Below, one piece after another: positions 2,210 through 33,893 of a DNA stretch of 64,000 bases. This stretch comes from Neophaeotheca triangularis (Eukaryota). The DNA is taken from contig BAAIJX010000009.1 in assembly GCA_054600435.1 (NCBI GenBank), positions 434,001 to 498,000 of the forward strand. Reading direction: 5' to 3'. Under the pieces are notes generated by a model. The model made no database searches. It was not told the DNA's origin and saw nothing but the letters and a program-made list of their open reading frames with translations. The position numbers and the translations under genes are program-made. How positions within the stretch are numbered: the stretch's first letter is position 1; every line of letters starts with the position of its first letter.

Positions 2210-5149
2210 ATGCTGACTTTCACTCCTCTCCTCGGAGCCCGCACCCCCTCGCCTGCCTCCCAATCCCTCCTCGAACTTGACGGCGGTGTCAAAATCCTCA
2301 TCGATGTCGGATGGGACGAGTGCTTCGACACCTCTAAGCTCCAAGCGATCGAGCAGCACGTCTCCACCCTCTCCCTCATCCTCCTCACACATCCCACGCT
2401 CGACCATCTTGGAGCATATGCACATTGCTGCAAGCATGTGCCTCTCTTCAGTAAAGTACCAGTGTACGCGACATCACCGGTAATCAATCTGGGGAGAACA
2501 CTTTTGGCGGATTTGTACAGCACATGCCCGGAAGCTGCCAGCATTATACCCATAGAGAGCATAAACAGTGCTGCCGGCGCGAAAGAATCGGACCGGACTC
2601 CAGACTTACTTTTACAAGCCCCGACGCCGGATGAAACAGCGACTTATTTCACCTTGATCAACCCTTTGAAATACCAACAGCCGCACCAGCCGATACCCTC
2701 GTCCTGGTCACCTTCTCTGGGTGGTCTCACTATCACCGCATACTGCGCAGGACATACACTAGGAGGCACGATATGGCACATTCAACACGGTTTGGAAAGC
2801 ATAGTGTATGCCGCGGACTGGAACCAGGGGCGAGAGAACCTATTCGCAGGCGCGGCATGGCTCAGCTCGAGTACAGGGGGTGCGGAGATTGTGGAACAAC
2901 TTCGCCGTCCTACCGCGCTGATATGCTCTTCAAAGGGCGTGGAGAAGACGAATCCGCTCTCGCGGAAGAAACGCGATGAAACGCTGATAGCACTCATTCG
3001 AGAGACGGTCGCGCAAGGCGGGAAGGTGCTCATACCCAGCGACTCTTCGGCAAGAGTTCTCGAGATGGCTTTCATACTCAACAGCTCATGGCGCGAAAAT
3101 ATCGATGGGCCTCACTCCGAGACTTACAGAAACACCCAGATATACATGGCTTCCAAATCGAGTACATCGACTGTACGATATATGCAGAGTATGCTGGAGT
3201 GGACCGAAGAGACAGTCATGCGGGATGCTGAGGCCGCCATGACATCGAAAGGACAGCAGGGCCAAGGGCAGGCGAGTCCGCTTGACTGGAAGTTTGTTAA
3301 GATGCTGGAGAAGAAGAGTCAGGTGGAGAAGGCCTTGCGCAAAGACAAGCCGTGCATCATGCTTGCTTCGGATGCCAGCATGCAGTGGGGATTCTCGAGA
3401 CAAGCACTGGAGGAACTAGCTAGCAGTGAGAAGAATTTGGTCATTATGCCGGATCGAGCGACGAAGCTCGATGAAAACAAGTCTGGGTTGGGGGAGCAGC
3501 TGTGGGATCTGTGGCGGCAGCGGACTGGCTACACTTCTAACCAGAGTGGAGTCAAGATCGTGAACACGGATGGTATGGTAGTGAACTTGGATCAGACCAC
3601 AACAACTAGTCTGGAGGGTGATGAGACTCTTCTATACCAACAGTACCTCGCTCGACAACATCAGCTGCACTCTTCCCTTCAAGGCGATAACACTATGCGA
3701 GACAACCCCACCGAAGAAGCCGCCGACGACCAAGCATCAGAGTCTTCTGAGTCCTCCGATGAAGATGAAGACGCCGAGTACCAAGGAAAAACCCTCAACC
3801 TTTCCGCGCAACTCACCCAATCCAACAAACGCAAACTGGCCCTCACAGATGCCGAATTAGGCATTAACGTTCTACTCAAGAGCAAGACTGTCCACGACTA
3901 CGATGTGCGGAACAAACGTGGCCGCGAGAAAGTCTTCCCTTTCGCCACCCACAAGGCCCGCAACGATGAATATGGCGATCTCATTAAACCCGAGGATTAT
4001 TTGCGAGCGGAGGAACGAGACGACGTAGACGGACAGGATATGCGCGACGGTGTCGACCACGAAACCTCGCTCGGGCAAAAGCGTAAATGGGACGACATGG
4101 CCTCGAATGCGAAGAGAACGGTCAAGGACCAGGGCAACCGGACAAAGGCTGAGCGCGAGCCCGATGATATCGACGCGGCTATAGCAAGAGCCACTGGAGA
4201 AGGCGGCGGTGCGGGCGGGAAGAGCGAAGATGAGGAATCAGACTACGAGCCTGATGAGGCAGTCATCGAGGGTCCACAAAAGCTTCTGAGAGAGCAACGC
4301 CAAGTGGCATTACGGCTCCGCGTCGCGCACGTAGACTTCTCTGGACTTCACGAGAAGCGAGATCTGCAAATGCTGGTCCCTCTCATCCGCCCACGCAAGC
4401 TCATCCTCATTGCAGGCGAAGAGTCGGAGACCCAAACCCTCGCGGAAGAGTGCAGACAACTCCTCACCGCCAGCGGCACTGGCAACGAAAGCACAGCGCC
4501 CGAAGTCCTAACCCCCACCATCGGCGAAGCTATCGAAGCCAGCGTCGACACCAACGCATGGACGCTCAAACTCAGCCGTCAGCTCGCCAAAAAACTGGCC
4601 TGGCAAAATGTCAAAGGCATGGACATAGTGGCGCTGCAAGGTCTACTCGATGCCGAACTCACCGACACCACACTTTCAATTTCCGAAGGTGCCGACGATG
4701 GAAGCAAGCGCAAGAAGCTTAAACTCGAAGAACCCACGCCCACCACCAATGACCTCAGGGTCGCAACCTCGACCAAAACCCACGCTTCCACGGCTCTCAT
4801 GCCCCTCCTCTCTCTTCTGGGCCCCTCGCACACCGCTGTCACGACAACACCCGCCAAGCAAGTTCAGCCCGTGCACGTCGGAGACTTGCGGCTCGCGGAT
4901 TTGCGCCGGCAATTGCACTCCATGGGCCACAGCGCAGAATTCCGCGGCGAGGGTACTCTGTTGGTCGATGGCGCGGCCGTCGTTAAGAAGAGCGGGGACG
5001 GCAAGATCGAGCTCGAGGTCGCGAGTGTGCCGCTCAGACGGCGGCAGATGGGGGCCATGATCAGCAATGGGGACGGGGGGTTGCCGTCTTTTTGGAGGGT
5101 TCGGGAAGTGGTTTATCGGGGTTTGGCTGAGGTTGCTGGCGGGTCGTAG
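2210..5149 (+). CDS. CFT2: CPSF subunit 2 (CPSF100), metallo-beta-lactamase/beta-CASP fold
   Basis: 979-aa ORF with FTPLLGA, KILIDVGWD, AGHTLGGTIWHI, IVYAADWNQ, VDFSGLH and C-terminal HVGDLRLADL...AEFRGEGTLL motifs. Confidence 0.93.
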   Translation: MLTFTPLLGARTPSPASQSLLELDGGVKILIDVGWDECFDTSKLQAIEQHVSTLSLILLTHPTLDHLGAYAHCCKHVPLFSKVPVYATSPVINLGRTLLADLYSTCPEAASIIPIESINSAAGAKESDRTPDLLLQAPTPDETATYFTLINPLKYQQPHQPIPSSWSPSLGGLTITAYCAGHTLGGTIWHIQHGLESIVYAADWNQGRENLFAGAAWLSSSTGGAEIVEQLRRPTALICSSKGVEKTNPLSRKKRDETLIALIRETVAQGGKVLIPSDSSARVLEMAFILNSSWRENIDGPHSETYRNTQIYMASKSSTSTVRYMQSMLEWTEETVMRDAEAAMTSKGQQGQGQASPLDWKFVKMLEKKSQVEKALRKDKPCIMLASDASMQWGFSRQALEELASSEKNLVIMPDRATKLDENKSGLGEQLWDLWRQRTGYTSNQSGVKIVNTDGMVVNLDQTTTTSLEGDETLLYQQYLARQHQLHSSLQGDNTMRDNPTEEAADDQASESSESSDEDEDAEYQGKTLNLSAQLTQSNKRKLALTDAELGINVLLKSKTVHDYDVRNKRGREKVFPFATHKARNDEYGDLIKPEDYLRAEERDDVDGQDMRDGVDHETSLGQKRKWDDMASNAKRTVKDQGNRTKAEREPDDIDAAIARATGEGGGAGGKSEDEESDYEPDEAVIEGPQKLLREQRQVALRLRVAHVDFSGLHEKRDLQMLVPLIRPRKLILIAGEESETQTLAEECRQLLTASGTGNESTAPEVLTPTIGEAIEASVDTNAWTLKLSRQLAKKLAWQNVKGMDIVALQGLLDAELTDTTLSISEGADDGSKRKKLKLEEPTPTTNDLRVATSTKTHASTALMPLLSLLGPSHTAVTTTPAKQVQPVHVGDLRLADLRRQLHSMGHSAEFRGEGTLLVDGAAVVKKSGDGKIELEVASVPLRRRQMGAMISNGDGGLPSFWRVREVVYRGLAEVAGGS

Positions 5150-7243: not shown

Positions 7244-9895
7244 CTACCTGATCTCTACCCTCACCTCCTGACCAAGCGCGGTCCAAAACTCCCCTGCTGA
7301 CTCCGGCCCCATCATCTCCCCCAAAACCTCCCCCTCCATCCATCCCTGCACATAACAAGACCCACAAACCCTCCAACTCCCATCCTCTCTCTCCCTCAGC
7401 ACTAACGGAACCGAACAACCCGCCACCAAGCCCAAAGACCACCTCCCCGCCAAACTACTCCCCTCTCGAACCTGCTTTGCCACATCCTCCGGCACGAGAC
7501 CCATATACCCCTCCTCCGAGACAAAAGGGACACGGCCTTTGAGCGTCATGCTCACGATGTCTAAAGCTTCGACTCGCGAGTAGCTGCCCGCAAAGGGACG
7601 GACGTGGCGGGAATACGGGGTTTGGTCGTTTTCGACAAGTTTTGGAGCGCGCGGCCGGGGGAGGCAGATGTACGGCTCCTGGTCCGGCCACGTTTCGTCG
7701 ATGTTAACGAGATTTTGGGCCCGAGGGGGCCAACTGCTGGGGACATCGCCGTGGAGCATGGCTGTTGCGGCCTGAAGAGTGTCCGAGTAAGGGTTGGCGT
7801 AGGCGGGGTGGGTTGTGTACCAGGCGGGGATTGCTCGGGTGTAGTGGTGGAGGGCGAAGTAGGCGTAAGGATCGCAGGGCGGGAACGCTATGTCGCTTGG
7901 GATTTCGAGGAGGGGGGTGATGATGTGTGAGACGCGGTCGGGGATGATGGCGGAGCATGTGAGGGCAGTATTGGAAATTGAGAAGAGAGGAAATTGTAGG
8001 TCGTCAGGTTTGATGCCTCCGTCGGCTGAGTATAGGGGGCCGTCTAGATTGTCGACTGCGTTCAGCGTGACGCTTGGGATGCAATCGCGGCGGATAAGAC
8101 AGCTGGAGGCCGCAGGCTTGCTCCAGTCTGGGCACCAGGATGGTGCAGATTGGTAGAATTTCTCGGGCTCAAGCTTCGTATTCTCGACAGCCCCTAGGAT
8201 GTCAAGGCTTTGATATTGCTCCATTCAAGCCGCCGCAAAATCAGCATAAACGGCCTCGAGGGGCTTGCTATAGTCCATGCTGTATTCGAGACCGGCTCCA
8301 GTTTTCTTGTCTTTAGCGACGTTCCATAACGCGAATAGCTTGTCTTTAGGCTCTGTCGCCTGGAAGTCACGGGTGAGAAGCAGACACTGAAGGAAGCCAG
8401 GCGAGTCTGCCGGGACATCGAACCAGTGTGACAAGAACGGGGCGTCTGCACGACTAGTCAAATGTCTGAAGTAGAAAATCTTGCGAGCAAAAGCCAAGTC
8501 TTTCACTTCAACATCCTCGAGCGAGGAATCTGCTTCCATCATGTGTCCCCGGAGAGTAGGGTCACGCTTCAGCATGCTCTCCAGATGGTACGCCGCCATT
8601 TCAAGTTGCTGAAAAGAGGTCTCGAAATCGTCTTCAACGCCAACGGCTGGGTTAGAAGCCCACGCGATCTCCTGAATAATCCACACGCGGCGAAATTAAG
8701 GCCTTAAGAAAAATTTGTACAAGGCAGCGGCCATCTTGTGAAATTGCTGAGGTGAGTATCTGTTTCCGCCATCTTCGTCGCCGAAATGCCATTCCCGTCT
8801 GTCATTGCGGCGCATCATTGGTACTTGCAGGGCCTGTATCAATTCCTTTGCGAGATGAGAGTCATCGTTATGGGCGCCCACGTAGCTCACGATCGATACT
8901 GCACAGTCGTAAATCTCGGACATACGAGATAGCTGCCTGTTCCTCTCTTGCACATTTTTTTGATTGATAGAGATGGCGTCGATCCATAACGGTATCATTA
9001 TTTTGCTTTGGCGCAGCCGTCTGAGAATGTTGGCGAGAGTCTTGCGTACGCTCAAGCGTAGTCCATTCATCACTATCGTCTCTGGTTTTTCATCCGTGCC
9101 CCATGTGTAGGAAAGTGCCGTATACGTGACATCGCAACGTAATGGGCAGTGTCCAACCTGGATCACAATTGGTGTCGTCGGATCCTCTGAGGGCATAAAC
9201 ACCAGCACTCGAATCTCATGCGCCACGGTATCCAGTGACGAATACACATAGTCGTGCGTGGCGTCCGCTCCAGGTACACACTTGTCGCCCAGGCCCAAGG
9301 GGATCGGATAGACTTGTGGCATGACGACCTCGTCAGGGACGCCCTACCACTGCTTCTCCCAATTCGCATATCTCGAGTCACGCATCGGCTGGATGATACC
9401 CTGGTCAACGAGCGACGCATTGTACTCGTGCATATCCACTACCTCAGTGCCTTTTGAATACATCTTGTCGCAATGCTCTCTGTTCCAGTACTCCCGCTGT
9501 TCGTCGGGAATCTGCAGCTCGAGACAAAGATACCGACACCACAGCCGCACGACCTCGTCTTTCTTTCTATAATGCCTAAGGAATCTCTCGAGCGCGGCGG
9601 GGACGATCAAGCCATGGCCATTGACCTCAATGGCCTCTTCAAAAAGCCGATAGCCCCTAGCATTTTTGATGGCTACAAATGATCCGGCCTCGGAGAGAGG
9701 CGCCGTTTCCAGAATGCACTTAACGTAGGCGTGTTCGTCTGCATTATCGCCATCATAGGGACAAAGGCAAAGGAACCGCTGCTCTTCGGTGTCGAAATCA
9801 AGGGGATCGTATTCGAAGTCGGGCCGAGCGACCCGCCTGCCTTCGCCCTCGTGGACTACAAGTGGATTGGCGTGCGGATGCCGAATGTCCTCCAT
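7244..9895 (-). pseudogene. HET (heterokaryon incompatibility)-domain gene, one reading frame of 884 codons interrupted by three in-frame stops; pseudogene or recoded gene
   Basis: Four listed ORFs are all in the same frame, separated only by TAG (9346-9344), TAA (8698-8696) and TGA (8227-8225). HET motifs: YTALSYTWG, LWIDAISINQ...ERNRQLSRMSEIY, RP*FRRVWIIQE, ATEPKDKLFAL, PSWCPDW, GCSVPLVLR...G.CYVQGWMEGE. Confidence 0.8.
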
Positions 9896-10651
9896 GGCCG
9901 ATTACGAACTGACAATGCTTTGCGTTGGTCCTTACCGAGTCTGGAGCATGGGGCAATGACCGTCCCTACAAACAAGACGGGAAGAGAAAAGATAAGATAG
10001 AAAGAACCCGCAAGATGCGCAATGGAAGGGAAAGTATGAGGTATACTTAACTTGCGCCTCCGCTTACCAGCCTCGATAGCTGAAGCAACGGCCAACAAGG
10101 CCGGCCCATTGAGGCACCATCTGAAACTAGAAGCGAAGGATTCTTTGGGCCGGAAGCATGCCGTAAGCGCCAGGATCCAAGTCACTCACAACTCGAGCTC
10201 CCAGAAGGAAGCATCGTACCGACGCCCTGATCCGTCAATTCGTTGCCTCGGTCAATAAACAATTCATTGTAATAGGACTCTTGGAACTTTGATGTCGTCG
10301 GGATAAGATAGAGATAGCATAAAGTGTCAAAGCCATGTTCAAGACTCCTTTTGATATGGTCCGTGCGCAGCGATCCTCGAGCGAAGTGGCCAGGGTCAGA
10401 GCTAGGGTTGGTGTTAACTTGTATGGACGAAAGGGTGCCGAGAGTTATATCGATACACCTAGGTAATGTCGTCAGTATCATCGTCGAACATTCGGCGTCT
10501 GAAATCTATCACTTGTGCCGTACATGTTTTTCAAGAGTATGGAACGATATTGCTGCATTGATGAGTTATCATACTAACGTAGCACACGGGTTCACCGACC
10601 TTGATAAAGAATGATCTCGCTTCTTAGCGTTTTCAAGGACCTCGTGACTTC

Positions 10652-29386: not shown

Positions 29387-29835
29387 AGGATGGGACGAGC
29401 TGGCAAAGGGGCGAAAGATTTCATGCGGTCGGTACTACCTATTGCTGCGGTATTGCGTCAATGCGGAATGTTGATTGCTTGTGGTGGTGCTATTACTTGC
29501 TTTCCCGCACACTGCTAAGGTCGATGGCATTTATATGAACGCTGCTAGAAGGCTTTTGGCCAAGTGAAGTGCCAAATATATCGTTCTGCCACAAAGCTAC
29601 CGGATGCTCGCCCGATTCCGATTGCCCACGAGGAAGTCCCAGATGAACAGCTAAAGAGTACTTTCCCCTATAAACACAGACGTGCTTTCCGTGCACTATC
29701 GTAAGTACTGCAACTAGCTCTCCTTACTTTGTTCCTCCAACGCCAGCCTCGATTCCTCTCCTTCATCAACATCATTCACCGCAGCACCGGATATTCGCCC
29801 CTTACTAACCGCATCACTAGCTCCGGCATGTTATA

Positions 29836-32800
29836 ATGCCGCTCTTCAACCGCCGCAAACTACGACGAAGAGGCTCCGAGTTCTTCTCCAAACTACCTTT
29901 CCAGTTTCGTCGCCGAGGCACCTCCCGCGCCAACTCCTGCAACGGCTCACAAGCCTCTTCCGAAAACAGCAGCCTCGACTCTACCCCCTCCGCCGCTTCA
30001 GTGCCAGCACACCGCACCATGGCTAGCCCACCTCCCATTCTCAATCTAAGCAAAATGCGTTCTTTCTTTGGCAGCAACAGTCAAGAGCCGGCCGGCTCGA
30101 GACCTGCCAGTGTACGCAACGATTCCTCTCCTCAAGACTTGAAACCCTCCGCCCACGATCCTGGCCGTACCGTGTCTGAGCCATCTCCAAAGCGAAGACG
30201 CTCTGTCCGGTTTCGCGGAATCGATCATAGCCAACTCGATGGCACGCCTGACGATGGACGAGAGTCTCAGTCCAGAAGCAAGTCGAGTGATTCGAGGCTC
30301 AGCAGACTTTCTCAGAACTTGTCTGAAAAGTTCGACCAAGTCGGCACTGCTCTCGGCATGGTCAATGGCAACGACACGTTGATTCACCGGCCTAAATCGA
30401 GACCAAAAGTGCCTTTCATAGACACCGATGCCAATCGCATTGCCGACAGTCGATCTGTTGAAGACGCCAATGCCTCGCCCAGTCCCACCATGTCCAGCGT
30501 GCCCTCCTCACCCACCCGCCGGACAGACGCGAGTCCCATTAGTGTAGCTTCGACCGCAGCTTCCAGCCTGATAAGCCCTCGTTCCACTGGCAGCTACAAG
30601 CGCGTCACTCCCGAAGACTACCAGAGCAAACACAGCAAAGAAGATGACAATACACTTCCACCCATCGAAGAAGACAGCGGGTATTACCTCTTCATCCCAG
30701 TGCAAGAGGCACCTATCAACATCGTGCCTACCGTTGACACTGTCGAGAAAGCTTCGGCCGCCAAAGTATATCTGGAGACTTCCTACAACGAGCTCATGAT
30801 GGAAGCCCAATCGCCCCGCTCTGTGCGACGCAGGCGCTTCGAGCAGAAGCTGCTGGATTATGGCGTTCCTCATGCGCAAAGAGTTGCGGCGAGACAGCAG
30901 TGGGCTAGGGCTGAGAGCGACCATTTACGCCAGATGCGGACGCTCAATGCGAGCTCGTTCTCGAGGCACAACGTCAAGGGCGTCTCGATAGCTGGGTACG
31001 ATGTCGTGAGAGTACTGGGTAAAGGTAGTTTTGGGGTCGTTCGACTTGTCACAGAACGTGCTGGTGAGAAAGATGCTGTCGAAACTCCAAAGAGCAGTAG
31101 CCAAGACGACGACAAGACCTCCCGCTCTCGTCGCACGTCAGCTACTCCTAGTCGGATGTCTTCCTCCAAATCGGACAGGCTCAAGAACAAGCCGCTCTCA
31201 GAGGTATTCGCCATGAAGGTCATCCGCAAGAGTGAGATGCTTCGAAATGCTCAGGAGGGTCATCTCCGCGCTGAGCGGGACTTTCTTGTGGCGGCTACCA
31301 CAGCATGCTCCCGCTGGATTGTCCCACTTATCGCCTCTTTCCAGGACAACATCAACCTCTACCTCGTCATGGAGTACATGATTGGCGGCGACTTCCTTGG
31401 CCTGCTGCTGCGCGAAGACGTGCTTGAAGAAAGTGTCGCCAAATAGTACGTGGCAGAGATGATCCTCTGCGTAGAAGAAGCGCACCGTATGAGATGGATT
31501 CATCGAGACGTGAAGCCCGACAACTTCCTCATCTGCGCCAGCGGCCACCTCAAGATCAGCGATTTTGGACTCGCTTTTGACGGTCATTGGACGCATTGCC
31601 AGAGCTACTACACTAATCATCGCTACAACTTGCTCGAGAAGTTGGGCATCAAAGTTCGTGGAGATGAGCAGGACGTTCTTGATGACTTCGAATCTGGCGG
31701 TGGAGGTGATGGTACCCCTTCGAGCGGCGCATCTTCCAAGACTGGCAGCAAAAGCCACGTCGACAACGAAGACTCCGTCCGCCGCGAAGGCCTCCTCAAC
31801 TATCGCAACCGCACTGAACGCCGCAGACTCGCACGCTCAGTCGTAGGAACAAGCCAGTACATGGCGCCAGAGGTGATCATGGGACAACCTTACGACGGCC
31901 GCTGCGACTGGTGGAGCATTGGCATTATCCTCTACGAATGCCTCTACGGCCGAACCCCCTTTTTCTGCGAGAACCGGCAAAAGACCAAAGAAAACATCGT
32001 CCAACACCGCGCGTCTCTTGGCTTCCCCGTCCACGAACGCTGGTCGCGTCCAACGTCCGAATCCCGCCGCTGGCTCCCTTCCCCCTCCGAACTCGTCATC
32101 GACCTAATGATGGCCCTGCTCACAGACAAAGAAGTCCGCCTCAGCGCCCGCCACTACCAACGCCTCGACCACAACAGCGGCAACCGCCTAGGCCGACGCC
32201 TCTCCGCCGCCGCTTCCACGAACCCTGCCGCCAACGGCTCCCCCAACACCCCCTGCCGCCACGTCACCGCCGCCGCCGCCGACGAAATCAAAGCCCACCG
32301 CTTCTTCACCGGCATCCCTTGGGCTCAGCTACACCTGATGCCACCCCCCTTCGTCCCCCGCGTCCGCGAAAACCAAAGCATAACCAAGTACTTTGAGTCC
32401 GAAGCGGAGATCGCCAAAGACGACGCCGACGACTCCGACTCGGAATTCTTGGATTTGTGCAGGGGTATTTCGCCCGAGATGAACAGCGAGGATGTCTTGA
32501 CGCTGTTGGGCGGTCAGGAGGCTTTTTCAAAGTATCGGGCTAGATTGCTCGCGGTTTGGAAGACGGAGATGGGGTTTGTAGACCACAATGCCGTTTCGGA
32601 CGGGGATTTTGAGCGGGAGCTGGCGGTTTTGGAGGGGCAGATGGGAAGAGAGGGGTTTGCGGAGTGGAAGAGCGATGTCTTGGGTCGGGTTTTGCCGAAA
32701 GTTGTCGGGGGTATGGGTGGGGGTGGTGCTGGTAAGGAGAGGAAGAGACCTCGGGATCGCATGTTGAGGGATGTGGGTGTTGGGAGACGCGTGATGGAGT

Positions 32801-32901
32801 TGAGGAAGCAGGGGGCGTTTTTGGGGTATACTTACCGTAGACCCAGGGAAGTTGAGGCGGTTGAACTGGGCGCCAGGGGCATGGGGTGGAGCGAGCGGTG
32901 A
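29836..32901 (+). CDS. AGC-group NDR/COT1-like Ser/Thr kinase (PUK1/STK-21-like), 1021 aa if the in-frame TAG at 31444-31446 is decoded
   Basis: LGKGSFGVV, FAMKVIRK, AERDFL, LYLVMEYMIGGD, AK*YVAEMILCVEEAH, IHRDVKPDN, DFG, SVVGTSQYMAPE, DWWSIG, IKAHRFF, PPFVP and FLGYTY. Both listed ORFs are in the same frame and separated by one codon. Confidence 0.9.
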
Positions 32902-33893
32902 TGGTGTGTTTGCTATTCATTCCTTTTCTATTTTTCTTCGACTTTAGTTCTAGGGCGTTTTGGGGGAAAGTCCTGGGGCGTCTTCCGTAGACCTGCGAAA
33001 ATTTCCTCTTTAATCTTTTTTTTTCTAGCGGCTCTGGTACGGGGCCAGTTGGAGACAGGGTGAGGTCGACAGTATTCGACAAAAAGACCAGTGACATTCA
33101 TGAAGAGGGACACGGTGACGACGACTTGCCCTTTCAAACCGGTCGAGACGCTCCGAGCGATACAGCGAGATGGGCGGACCAAGTATAAGTCCAGCTCTCA
33201 TCCTATACAAGTAATGCCGCGGTGAACGAGGCCGAAGCTTGGGCTGCAATTCGTGTGTACGGTATTTATCAAAAATTCTAAAGCCAGACAATGAATGTGC
33301 ACAGCTTGAAGACTTTGACCTTGAACACGCTCAACAAAGACGATGATCAGGGTCAAGAACAGAAGGACAGGAAGATACAACGGGTTGGTTTCTCACGTGG
33401 TCATCCACCGTAGTGATAATCGCCTGCTTCGATGGATGCCTTGGATTCATTGAGCTATGGTCGTATCTGAATGAATTAGCGGCAATATGTATGTATTCAA
33501 ATTTTGTTTATCTCTTCTGTTGGAAATCAAATGTCAAGGAATTGAGCCCTGTTTGATGTTCACAATCGAAAGCAAGTCTTCAGGAGTCAGCCGGCTTTTG
33601 CGGGACTTGTGGTATTCTTGGCAGTCGACCTGACCACTGTATCTGCCAACACACAGGATCAAAAGTGCGGAGCCGAAGCTCCCAGTAAGGCAATCTTTCA
33701 AGAGTAGAGTGACGAGACAAGTCATAAGACGCTGCGGAACTGTTCCAATAGCTTTTGCAGCTTATAGTCTCGTACCATGGAACCCTAGATTCATCGCCCT
33801 CCCGAATTCTCGACAACCAGAACCACCGCATATCCTCTCCCATCTATCAATCTTATCCTTACACACGCGTCCCATCATACCGCCAACCCAACC

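Follow-up and report, generated by a model that had tools for sequence, protein, structure and literature searches.

The window analysed here is a stretch of 64,000 nucleotides from Neophaeotheca triangularis (contig BAAIJX010000009.1), and the subject of this report is a protein kinase gene on its plus strand that is interrupted by one in-frame TAG, a stop that is probably removed by editing of the messenger RNA (mRNA). A single frame is open at 29821-31443 (541 codons) and again at 31447-32898 (484 codons), and the two parts are split by the TAG alone. Counted from the ATG at 29836 the coding frame (29836..32901) comprises 1021 codons including the TAG, is free of frameshifts, needs no intron and ends at a TGA terminator at 32899-32901. 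The TAG (31444-31446) is found in the sequence GTC GCC AAA TAG TAC GTG GCA GAG ATG, and is codon 537 and the sole internal stop.

The frame gives a Pfam Pkinase match with an E-value of 8.6e-48. It carries, all in the same register, the GKGSFG motif (31018-31035), the HRD motif of the catalytic loop (31501-31509), DFG (31561-31569, residues 576-578), APE (31864-31872, residues 677-679) and DWW (31906-31914), the last with its tryptophan (Trp) pair written as plain TGG TGG at 31909-31914. An earlier note made from the letters of the window had described a kinase frame intact except for one TAG, with the motifs at these positions and an unaltered DWW, and all of this was borne out. The C-terminal FLGYTYRR (32818..32841), conserved downstream of the TAG, is taken to be the hydrophobic motif of the NDR type. 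The closest solved relatives are the NDR kinases Cbk1 (4lqs) and STK38 (6bxi), with an E-value of 2e-60, and the core of the kinase is most like these two, with an insert between DFG and APE, which places it among the NDR/AGC kinases. In yeast Cbk1 (4lqs) the residue opposite the stop is the F of 'trFymae', and the stretch around the stop presumably belongs to helix E, by analogy with PKA.

Judged by its proteins the host is a dothideomycete, as the earlier note had suspected, because both the best matches and the tree neighbours of the kinase are Dothideomycetes. The best protein matches, at no more than 68% identity, come from Teratosphaeriaceae, Elasticomyces, Friedmanniomyces and Cladosporium, and in a quick tree the window groups with Rachicladosporium (Cladosporiales), its nearest named relative. 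Sequence comparison further indicates that the gene belongs to the PUK1/STK-21 orthogroup. A family DNA set of 80 metagenome loci was gathered with the family alignment; their taxonomic labels are nearest-match guesses, and a family signature is common to all of them. One of these loci, L078, reads TAG TAG at DWW and matches Fusarium proteins at 76-96% identity, and searches with the window protein and with L078 share the proteins P0060, P0072 and P0103. The orthogroup assignment was made through L078 and these shared proteins. Other marks of the orthogroup are expression specific to fruiting bodies and a part in making ascospores. Eleven further loci, L033 and L044 among them, have TAG TGG at DWW, and six of the eleven are nearest to Podospora and other Sordariomycetes. 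According to Liu et al. (2016), PUK1 of Fusarium graminearum has UAG UAG in subdomain IX, while NCU03242 of Neurospora crassa has UAG UGG and M. oryzae has UGG UGG at DWW (PMC4817773). The public protein models agree with this source, in that 17 of 17 Fusarium models with the YMAPE match lack the DWW stretch while the Pyricularia models retain it. The TAG at DWW is not found in the window, and it is variable within the Sordariomycetes as well. The comparison therefore supports a PUK1-like gene with its stop at a different Trp, as had been proposed.

The position of the stop, here called site A, is Trp-invariant in the family alignment (A1). Among 120 long homologues it is occupied by Trp in 111, by Phe in 2 and by a gap in 7. 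The seven models with a gap, inspected in an alignment of 16 of 121 sequences, always lack the site A column, and four of them lack HRD too. They come from Dothistroma septosporum, Zasmidium cellare, Zymoseptoria tritici, Teratosphaeria nubilosa, Baudoinia panamericana, Cryoendolithus antarcticus and one Friedmanniomyces copy. As judged from the alignment, the gaps are made by gene predictors avoiding an in-frame stop; the same annotation mistake was formerly made for PUK1 (PMC7306014, PMC4817773). A search for short proteins gave 957 matches, and among the 120 listed 106 end before the Trp column, one being the fragment from the window itself. With this fragment excluded, 105 of 119 short models end at the residue just before the column. 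The named carriers are Salinomyces, Vermiconidia, Meristemomyces, Oleoguttula, Extremus, Hortaea (a cluster of 91 members), Lecanosticta, Saxophila, Acrodontium, Rachicladosporium, Periconia digitata, Ascochyta rabiei, A. lentis and Boeremia exigua. They fall in the Cladosporiales, Mycosphaerellales and Pleosporales (Didymellaceae, Periconiaceae), and so in both subclasses of the Dothideomycetes. Public models P0020-P0027, P0056, P0126-P0241 and P0242-P0264 are misannotated, being either cut at the stop or given invented introns, which delete HRD in Dothideomycetes and DWW in Fusarium and Trichoderma cornu-damae.

In the 80 loci the site A codon is TGG in 47, TTC or TTT in 23 and TAG in seven (L003, L004, L005, L007, L010, L011 and L057), and it was not located in three. 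The alignment of orthologues suggested in the earlier note thus has the stop recurring, and the stop at site A is, by the sequences compared, old and widespread and not private to one strain. A FastTree phylogeny of 292 rows by 215 residues upstream of site A has at least 28 changes between stop and sense, which, the tree being quick and the segment short, are taken to mean several changes and not a count of origins. Not included in this tree were P0122 (the window's own protein), four gap models (P0024, P0025, P0027 and P0056) and any row with fewer than 150 upstream residues (e.g., L056 and L057). A Trp-bearing protein near-identical to a stop-truncated one was sought in the protein databases and none was found, the best pair being 88% identical.

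The TAG at 31444-31446 is genuine and no assembly error, because it is kept in contigs from two further data sets, X2 and X3. X2 comes from another sample of the organism and differs from the window by about 1.5%; its contig covers 30621-31544 with three differences, none of them at the TAG. The X3 contig (depth 3) stems from an air metagenome of another study and covers 31410-31560 with zero differences, so that the stop occurs in an independent sample as well as in many orthologues. The earlier note had looked to raw reads for confirmation of the TAG; what confirms it here are assembled Logan contigs and not raw reads. A fourth data set, X4, represents another organism, with pieces less than 90% alike and the site outside its coverage. 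The differences listed between X2 and the window comprise five synonymous and four non-synonymous changes downstream of the stop and 12 and seven, respectively, upstream of it, and 14 more lie outside this count. Over 29600-33000 X2 contigs with a depth of about 120 alternate with pairs of contigs at about 60, and many of the differences occur in just one of two overlapping contigs. X2 seems to consist of two haplotypes (from a diploid, a hybrid or a mixed culture), with the TAG on both.

The GC content of the window is flat at 0.545, and the neighbouring genes (CstF2-like, CPSF100, Src1/Heh, DDHD lipase, GCN1, DEAH helicase and a proteasome subunit) are intact; there is therefore no sign of repeat-induced point mutation (RIP) or of poor assembly, and RIP was rejected on these grounds. 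In the window 29 stops have no fewer than 90 open codons on either side, and among these the kinase TAG has the longest pair of flanks once obvious intron and gene starts are set aside. A genome-wide reassignment of TAG to a sense codon finds its only encouragement in the frame being open when TAG is read as Trp. Elsewhere in the window TAG serves as a normal terminator, since it closes the CPSF100 frame (at 5147-5149), seven codons past the complete C-terminal Pfam domain of that frame. Eight of the 10 window TAGs with at least 90 open flanking codons were read as Trp (the kinase TAG and the neighbours of 23380 being left out), and none of the eight lies inside a Pfam domain. Reassignment may for practical purposes be dismissed.

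The sequence behind the stop was compared between loci that both carry TAG. For L003 and L004 the ratio of non-synonymous to synonymous substitution rates (dN/dS) is 0.056 downstream of the stop (dS 0.68) and 0.071 upstream, while for L005 and L007 it is 0.063 downstream and 0.088 upstream. Selection downstream of the TAG is thus not relaxed, and the frames there are intact for 454-469 codons to the conserved C-terminus. The 32 codons directly after the TAG, YVAEMILCVEEAHRMRWIHRDVKPDNFLICAS (31447..31542), include the HRD loop; annotators excise their counterpart as an 'intron', yet they evolve as coding sequence. L003 and L004 differ at seven nucleotides in this stretch, six of them third positions, with one residue change, and L005 and L007 at 15, of which 12 are third positions, with two residue changes. 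By these substitution patterns the sequence beyond the stop is translated and under purifying selection, and the third-position pattern together with the low dN/dS therefore excludes an intron and a decaying pseudogene.

Alternative splicing would remove the stop by means of a 96-nt in-frame intron running from GTACGT at 31446 to CAG at 31539-31541. GTACGT does resemble a fungal 5' splice site, and the gene models of Dothistroma, Zasmidium and Zymoseptoria use the equivalent gap. However, the GT arises automatically whenever TAG is followed by TAY, the stretch that would be lost contains the HRD catalytic loop and is coding-like in the carriers, and a comparable annotated intron in F. graminearum was shown to be unspliced (PMC4817773, PMC7306014). 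Splicing is exceedingly unlikely as an explanation, and the claim that no intron fits holds good. That a dispensable gene has repeatedly decayed into a pseudogene, or that the stop is a sequencing error, might be suggested by the fact that TGG becomes TAG in a single transition and that many carriers are treated as truncated genes in public annotation. This is hardly credible for a frame of 1021 codons with one stop and no frameshift, whose TAG is present in both X2 and X3, whose downstream dN/dS between carrier pairs is 0.056-0.063 at a dS of at least 0.68, whose neighbours and GC content are undisturbed, and where the same codon has been hit across orders.

When the 80 loci and the window were swept with tblastn for stops lying between conserved residues, 52 were obtained, namely 41 TAG, eight TAA and three TGA. 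By inspection 10 of the 11 TAA or TGA cases are intron starts (of GTAAGT, GTGAGT or GTAACC type) and the other one lies upstream of the conserved block, while nine of the TAGs mark intron ends or fall where the alignment is poor. The clean in-frame stops number 32, all of them TAG and all at five sites; no clean in-frame TGA or TAA was found among the 80 loci and the window. Four of the sites are conserved Trp codons, and the fifth is a tyrosine codon. Site A, the helix-E Trp, has eight clean TAGs including that of the window. Site B is the Trp pair of DWW (W692, W693), the published editing site of PUK1/STK-21, with TAG in 12 loci and in addition at the second Trp in L078. Site C (W356, 30901..30903) is TGG in the window and TAG in six Pleosporales-like loci, site D (Y597) is TAG in four Sordariales-like loci, and site E (W494, 31315..31317) is TGG in the window and TAG in one locus, L074. 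At sites A, B and C the stop is followed by U, at D by A and at E by G; in no case is the next base C. In the coding sequence of the window TGG accounts for 12 of the 146 codons that are one mutation from TAG, and under a model of random nonsense mutation the probability of at least four sites in five falling on TGG is 2e-4. A G-to-A change in TGG yields TAG or TGA equally often, yet TGA is never seen, and a reading of UAG specifically as Trp therefore fits. Editing of UAG to UIG would match this pattern of TAG only, at Trp sites, exactly.

The main and serious rival to editing is programmed translational readthrough, where a near-cognate tRNA would read the UAG and a full-length kinase would be made from unchanged RNA. 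It explains a conserved stop with purifying selection behind it equally well. Readthrough of UAG inserts Gln, Tyr or Lys, and Tyr might be tolerated at site A, where Phe is found in 2 of the 120 long homologues and in 23 of the 80 loci. On the other hand, TGA is the leakiest stop and is read by the near-cognate tRNA-Trp, yet each of the 32 clean stops is TAG. Four of the five sites fall on Trp although the Gln, Lys, Glu and Tyr codons that a single change turns into TAG number 101, against 12 for TGG. Leaky contexts consist of UGA or UAG followed by C, or of a CARYYA-type motif; here the next base is U, A or G and no CARYYA-type motif follows the stop. The same orthogroup has moreover been found by experiment to be edited, not read through, in Sordariomycetes (PMC4817773). 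Readthrough is in our view unlikely, but it has to be taken seriously.

It is also conceivable that the stop is not recoded at all. The gene would then give a 536-residue N-terminal product, and possibly a C-terminal piece re-initiated at Met541, the two acting as separate parts or as a split kinase. The conserved ATG four codons past the stop (AEM) and the purifying selection on both halves are in line with this idea. It leaves unexplained, however, that across the five sites the stops are TAG only and placed on Trp codons, and in loci L039 and L057, with two TAGs each, it would put the protein in three pieces; nor do we know of any precedent for a kinase core cut inside helix E. This explanation is very unlikely. 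Weighing the sequence patterns together, the stop is very probably functional, selectively maintained and recoded, by whatever means.

Some loci of the sweep display features of their own. The two TAGs of L039, a Pleosporales-like locus, are at 3514 and 4366 (sites C and B), and those of L057, which is not dothideomycete-like (nearest match about 60%), are at 527 and 983 (sites A and B). A TAG at the first Trp of DWW is found at L033:4570, L044:1453 and L056:4191, loci whose nearest matches are unnamed or Eurotiomycetes/Lecanoromycetes-like. L033, L044, L056 and L057 hint that the kinase is stop-gated outside Sordariomycetes and Dothideomycetes too. In L003, L004 and L010, all with TAG at site A, the first Trp of the otherwise invariant DWW is replaced by Leu (CTC). 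The Bipolaris maydis model P0074 reads 'RRLLVMTYLSETYHLRQ' at site C where its relatives have 'QRQQKRRE-W-YLAE', and the loci nearest to it (L009, L012 and L019) carry TAG at this site; the model may hide an in-frame stop.

The adenosine at 31445, which is the one proposed to be edited, has U at -1, A at -2, G at +1 and A at +3. It is predicted to lie in a hairpin (31438..31454) with the stem GCCA 31438-31441/UGGC 31451-31454 and the 9-nt loop AAUAGUACG (31442-31450), which contains the TAG. Both features had been pointed out in the earlier note; the bases are as described, and the hairpin reappears as a predicted fold whose stem is kept in 7 of 7 TAG contexts. Fungal editing sites are described in PMC11156358 as lying preferentially in hairpin loops, with U at -1 (in more than 70% of cases) and with A or G at +1 as well as at +3, and the window context with its U, G, A and predicted loop agrees with these preferences. 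Minimum-energy folding leaves the TAG in a hairpin loop for each of the seven distinct TAG contexts, and a stem of at least four consecutive pairs is present in six of the seven as against 10 of 35 TGG contexts (Fisher p = 0.008). The freely wobbling pair 31440/31452 is complementary in 7/7 TAG and 18/35 TGG contexts (p = 0.03); the change is compensatory, the pair being C-G in four of the TAG contexts and G-C in three. Altogether 90.5% of the stem cells pair, a value reached by 3 of 500 shuffles, and two pairs change on both sides. Site C has a better hairpin, with 7 bp, a 6-nt loop and -12.3 kcal/mol in L012.

The reading that accounts best for these observations is that restorative UAG-to-UIG editing, giving Trp, gates the PUK1-type kinase in Dothideomycetes, and on the sequence patterns this is probable. 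The gene is here taken as the dothideomycete orthologue of PUK1/STK-21, which is an NDR-like kinase found in filamentous ascomycetes, with UAG encoded in the DNA for the invariant Trp at the start of helix E. An unedited message would give a 536-residue fragment without the catalytic loop, and the kinase would be off. At a particular stage, by analogy the sexual one, an enzyme of the tRNA-deaminase type such as Tad2/Tad3 would deaminate A31445, which lies in the loop of a small predicted hairpin and is preceded by U. In fungi that edit, this machinery comprises short isoforms of Tad2/Tad3 and an Ame1 able to bind Tad3. The resulting UIG would be decoded as UGG, restoring the Trp that is conserved in 111 of the 120 long homologues and giving the full 1021-residue kinase. 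The adenosine-to-inosine (A-to-I) change, the enzyme and the stage are all inferred. The wider proposition, that the Dothideomycetes have a working A-to-I UAG-to-Trp system of which the PUK1 kinase is a conserved client, TAG-gated at no fewer than five codons (helix-E Trp, DWW, W356, W494 and Y597), is one towards which we lean slightly.

Several points weigh against editing. The choice between it and readthrough is inferred from DNA and protein sequence, and a Tyr inserted by readthrough of UAG could also supply an aromatic residue at site A. Several carriers, Hortaea, Friedmanniomyces and Rachicladosporium among them, are not known to reproduce sexually. The type of the stop was read in DNA for eight site A carriers, while the 105 truncated models are evidence at the protein level. 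The hairpin statistics are small, ignore relatedness and concern predicted folds, and three of the first four stem pairs are largely set by Ala, Lys and Val/Ile codons. The host lies outside the lineages where editing has been demonstrated (Sordariomycetes and Pyronema). The origin of editing, through the Ame1-Tad3 interaction, is placed by two sources in the Sordariomycetes and, separately, in the Pezizomycetes (PMC11087585, PMC10776026), and Aspergillus nidulans and Botrytis cinerea are described in another as having no genome-wide editing (PMC11156358). A published report of mRNA editing in Dothideomycetes was searched for and none was found, nor did the papers listed for Zymoseptoria, Leptosphaeria, Pyrenophora or Venturia mention A-to-I or RNA editing; supplements, e.g., the per-gene trees of PMC10776026, were outside this search and could display TAGs beyond the Sordariomycetes.

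Which classes of the Pezizomycotina edit their mRNA is treated as an open question in PMC11156358, and species forming pseudothecia are described in PMC7306014 as never having been examined for editing. Dothideomycetes is the largest class of ascomycetes, and editing there would be new to the literature that was found. Site A makes the class-wide question a one-amplicon experiment. If the editing interpretation is correct, restorative editing reaches a class that contains crop pathogens (Zymoseptoria, Dothistroma, Ascochyta) as well as extremotolerant black fungi, and the origin of fungal mRNA editing would move well outside the Sordariomycetes, or there would be a third independent origin. 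If Hortaea, Friedmanniomyces and Rachicladosporium-like rock fungi, which are considered asexual, keep the gate, this would then imply cryptic sex or editing outside the sexual stage, and convergent stop-gating of one kinase at five sites would suggest that the kinase is harmful outside one stage of life. The comparison also exposes a systematic annotation error, with more than 100 public models truncated at the stop or given an intron that deletes the catalytic loop.

Elsewhere in the window, a HET-domain gene frame on the minus strand (8699-9901) has a TAG at 9346-9344, preceded by 185 open in-frame codons that end in CAG TGG TAG. The part upstream of this TAG resembles a degenerate HET N-terminus, and it could represent a gene boundary, a pseudogene or another recoded stop.

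Among known systems, Cbk1/COT1 and STK38 have the long insert between DFG and APE in common with the window kinase, and where the latter has its stop they carry an aromatic residue (F). They are, however, separate paralogues without an internal stop, and the name 'cbk1' on orthologues of the window gene results from annotation transfer. Stop-codon readthrough in fungi, e.g., that producing peroxisomal isoforms, favours UGA with C at +4 and extends the C-terminus. These cases resemble the window gene in having an in-frame stop with conserved coding sequence behind it, but stops of the window type are always UAG, fall on Trp codons and lie in the middle of the catalytic domain. DBF2 of Sordariomycetes is, like the window gene, an NDR-family kinase with a UAG; in the account of PMC13123824 it undergoes stop-loss UAG-to-UIG editing in the sexual stage, which tunes the kinase activity. 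There it is the normal terminator that is edited, adding a destabilising tail, while in the window gene editing would take away an internal stop, without which step no kinase would be made.

A closer parallel is provided by the 71 'PSC pseudogenes' of F. graminearum, which are described as undergoing restorative editing at TAGs that mostly stem from TGG (PMC10776026). As with the window gene, the TAG has come and gone more than once at a given site, in different lineages, and selection maintains it; the origins described in that source all lie within the Sordariomycetes, whereas those seen here belong to Dothideomycetidae and Pleosporomycetidae. The closest counterpart is PUK1 (FGRRES_01058) of F. 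graminearum and STK-21 (NCU03242) of N. crassa. In these the stop is at DWW in subdomain IX and is corrected from UAG to UGG by A-to-I editing in the sexual stage, while in the window gene, which belongs to a dothideomycete and is known here from DNA, it is at the helix-E Trp. In other respects the two agree: they belong to the same orthogroup, they have a TAG at an invariant Trp of the kinase core, with U at -1 and in a hairpin loop, and both have been given erroneous introns or truncations by annotators.

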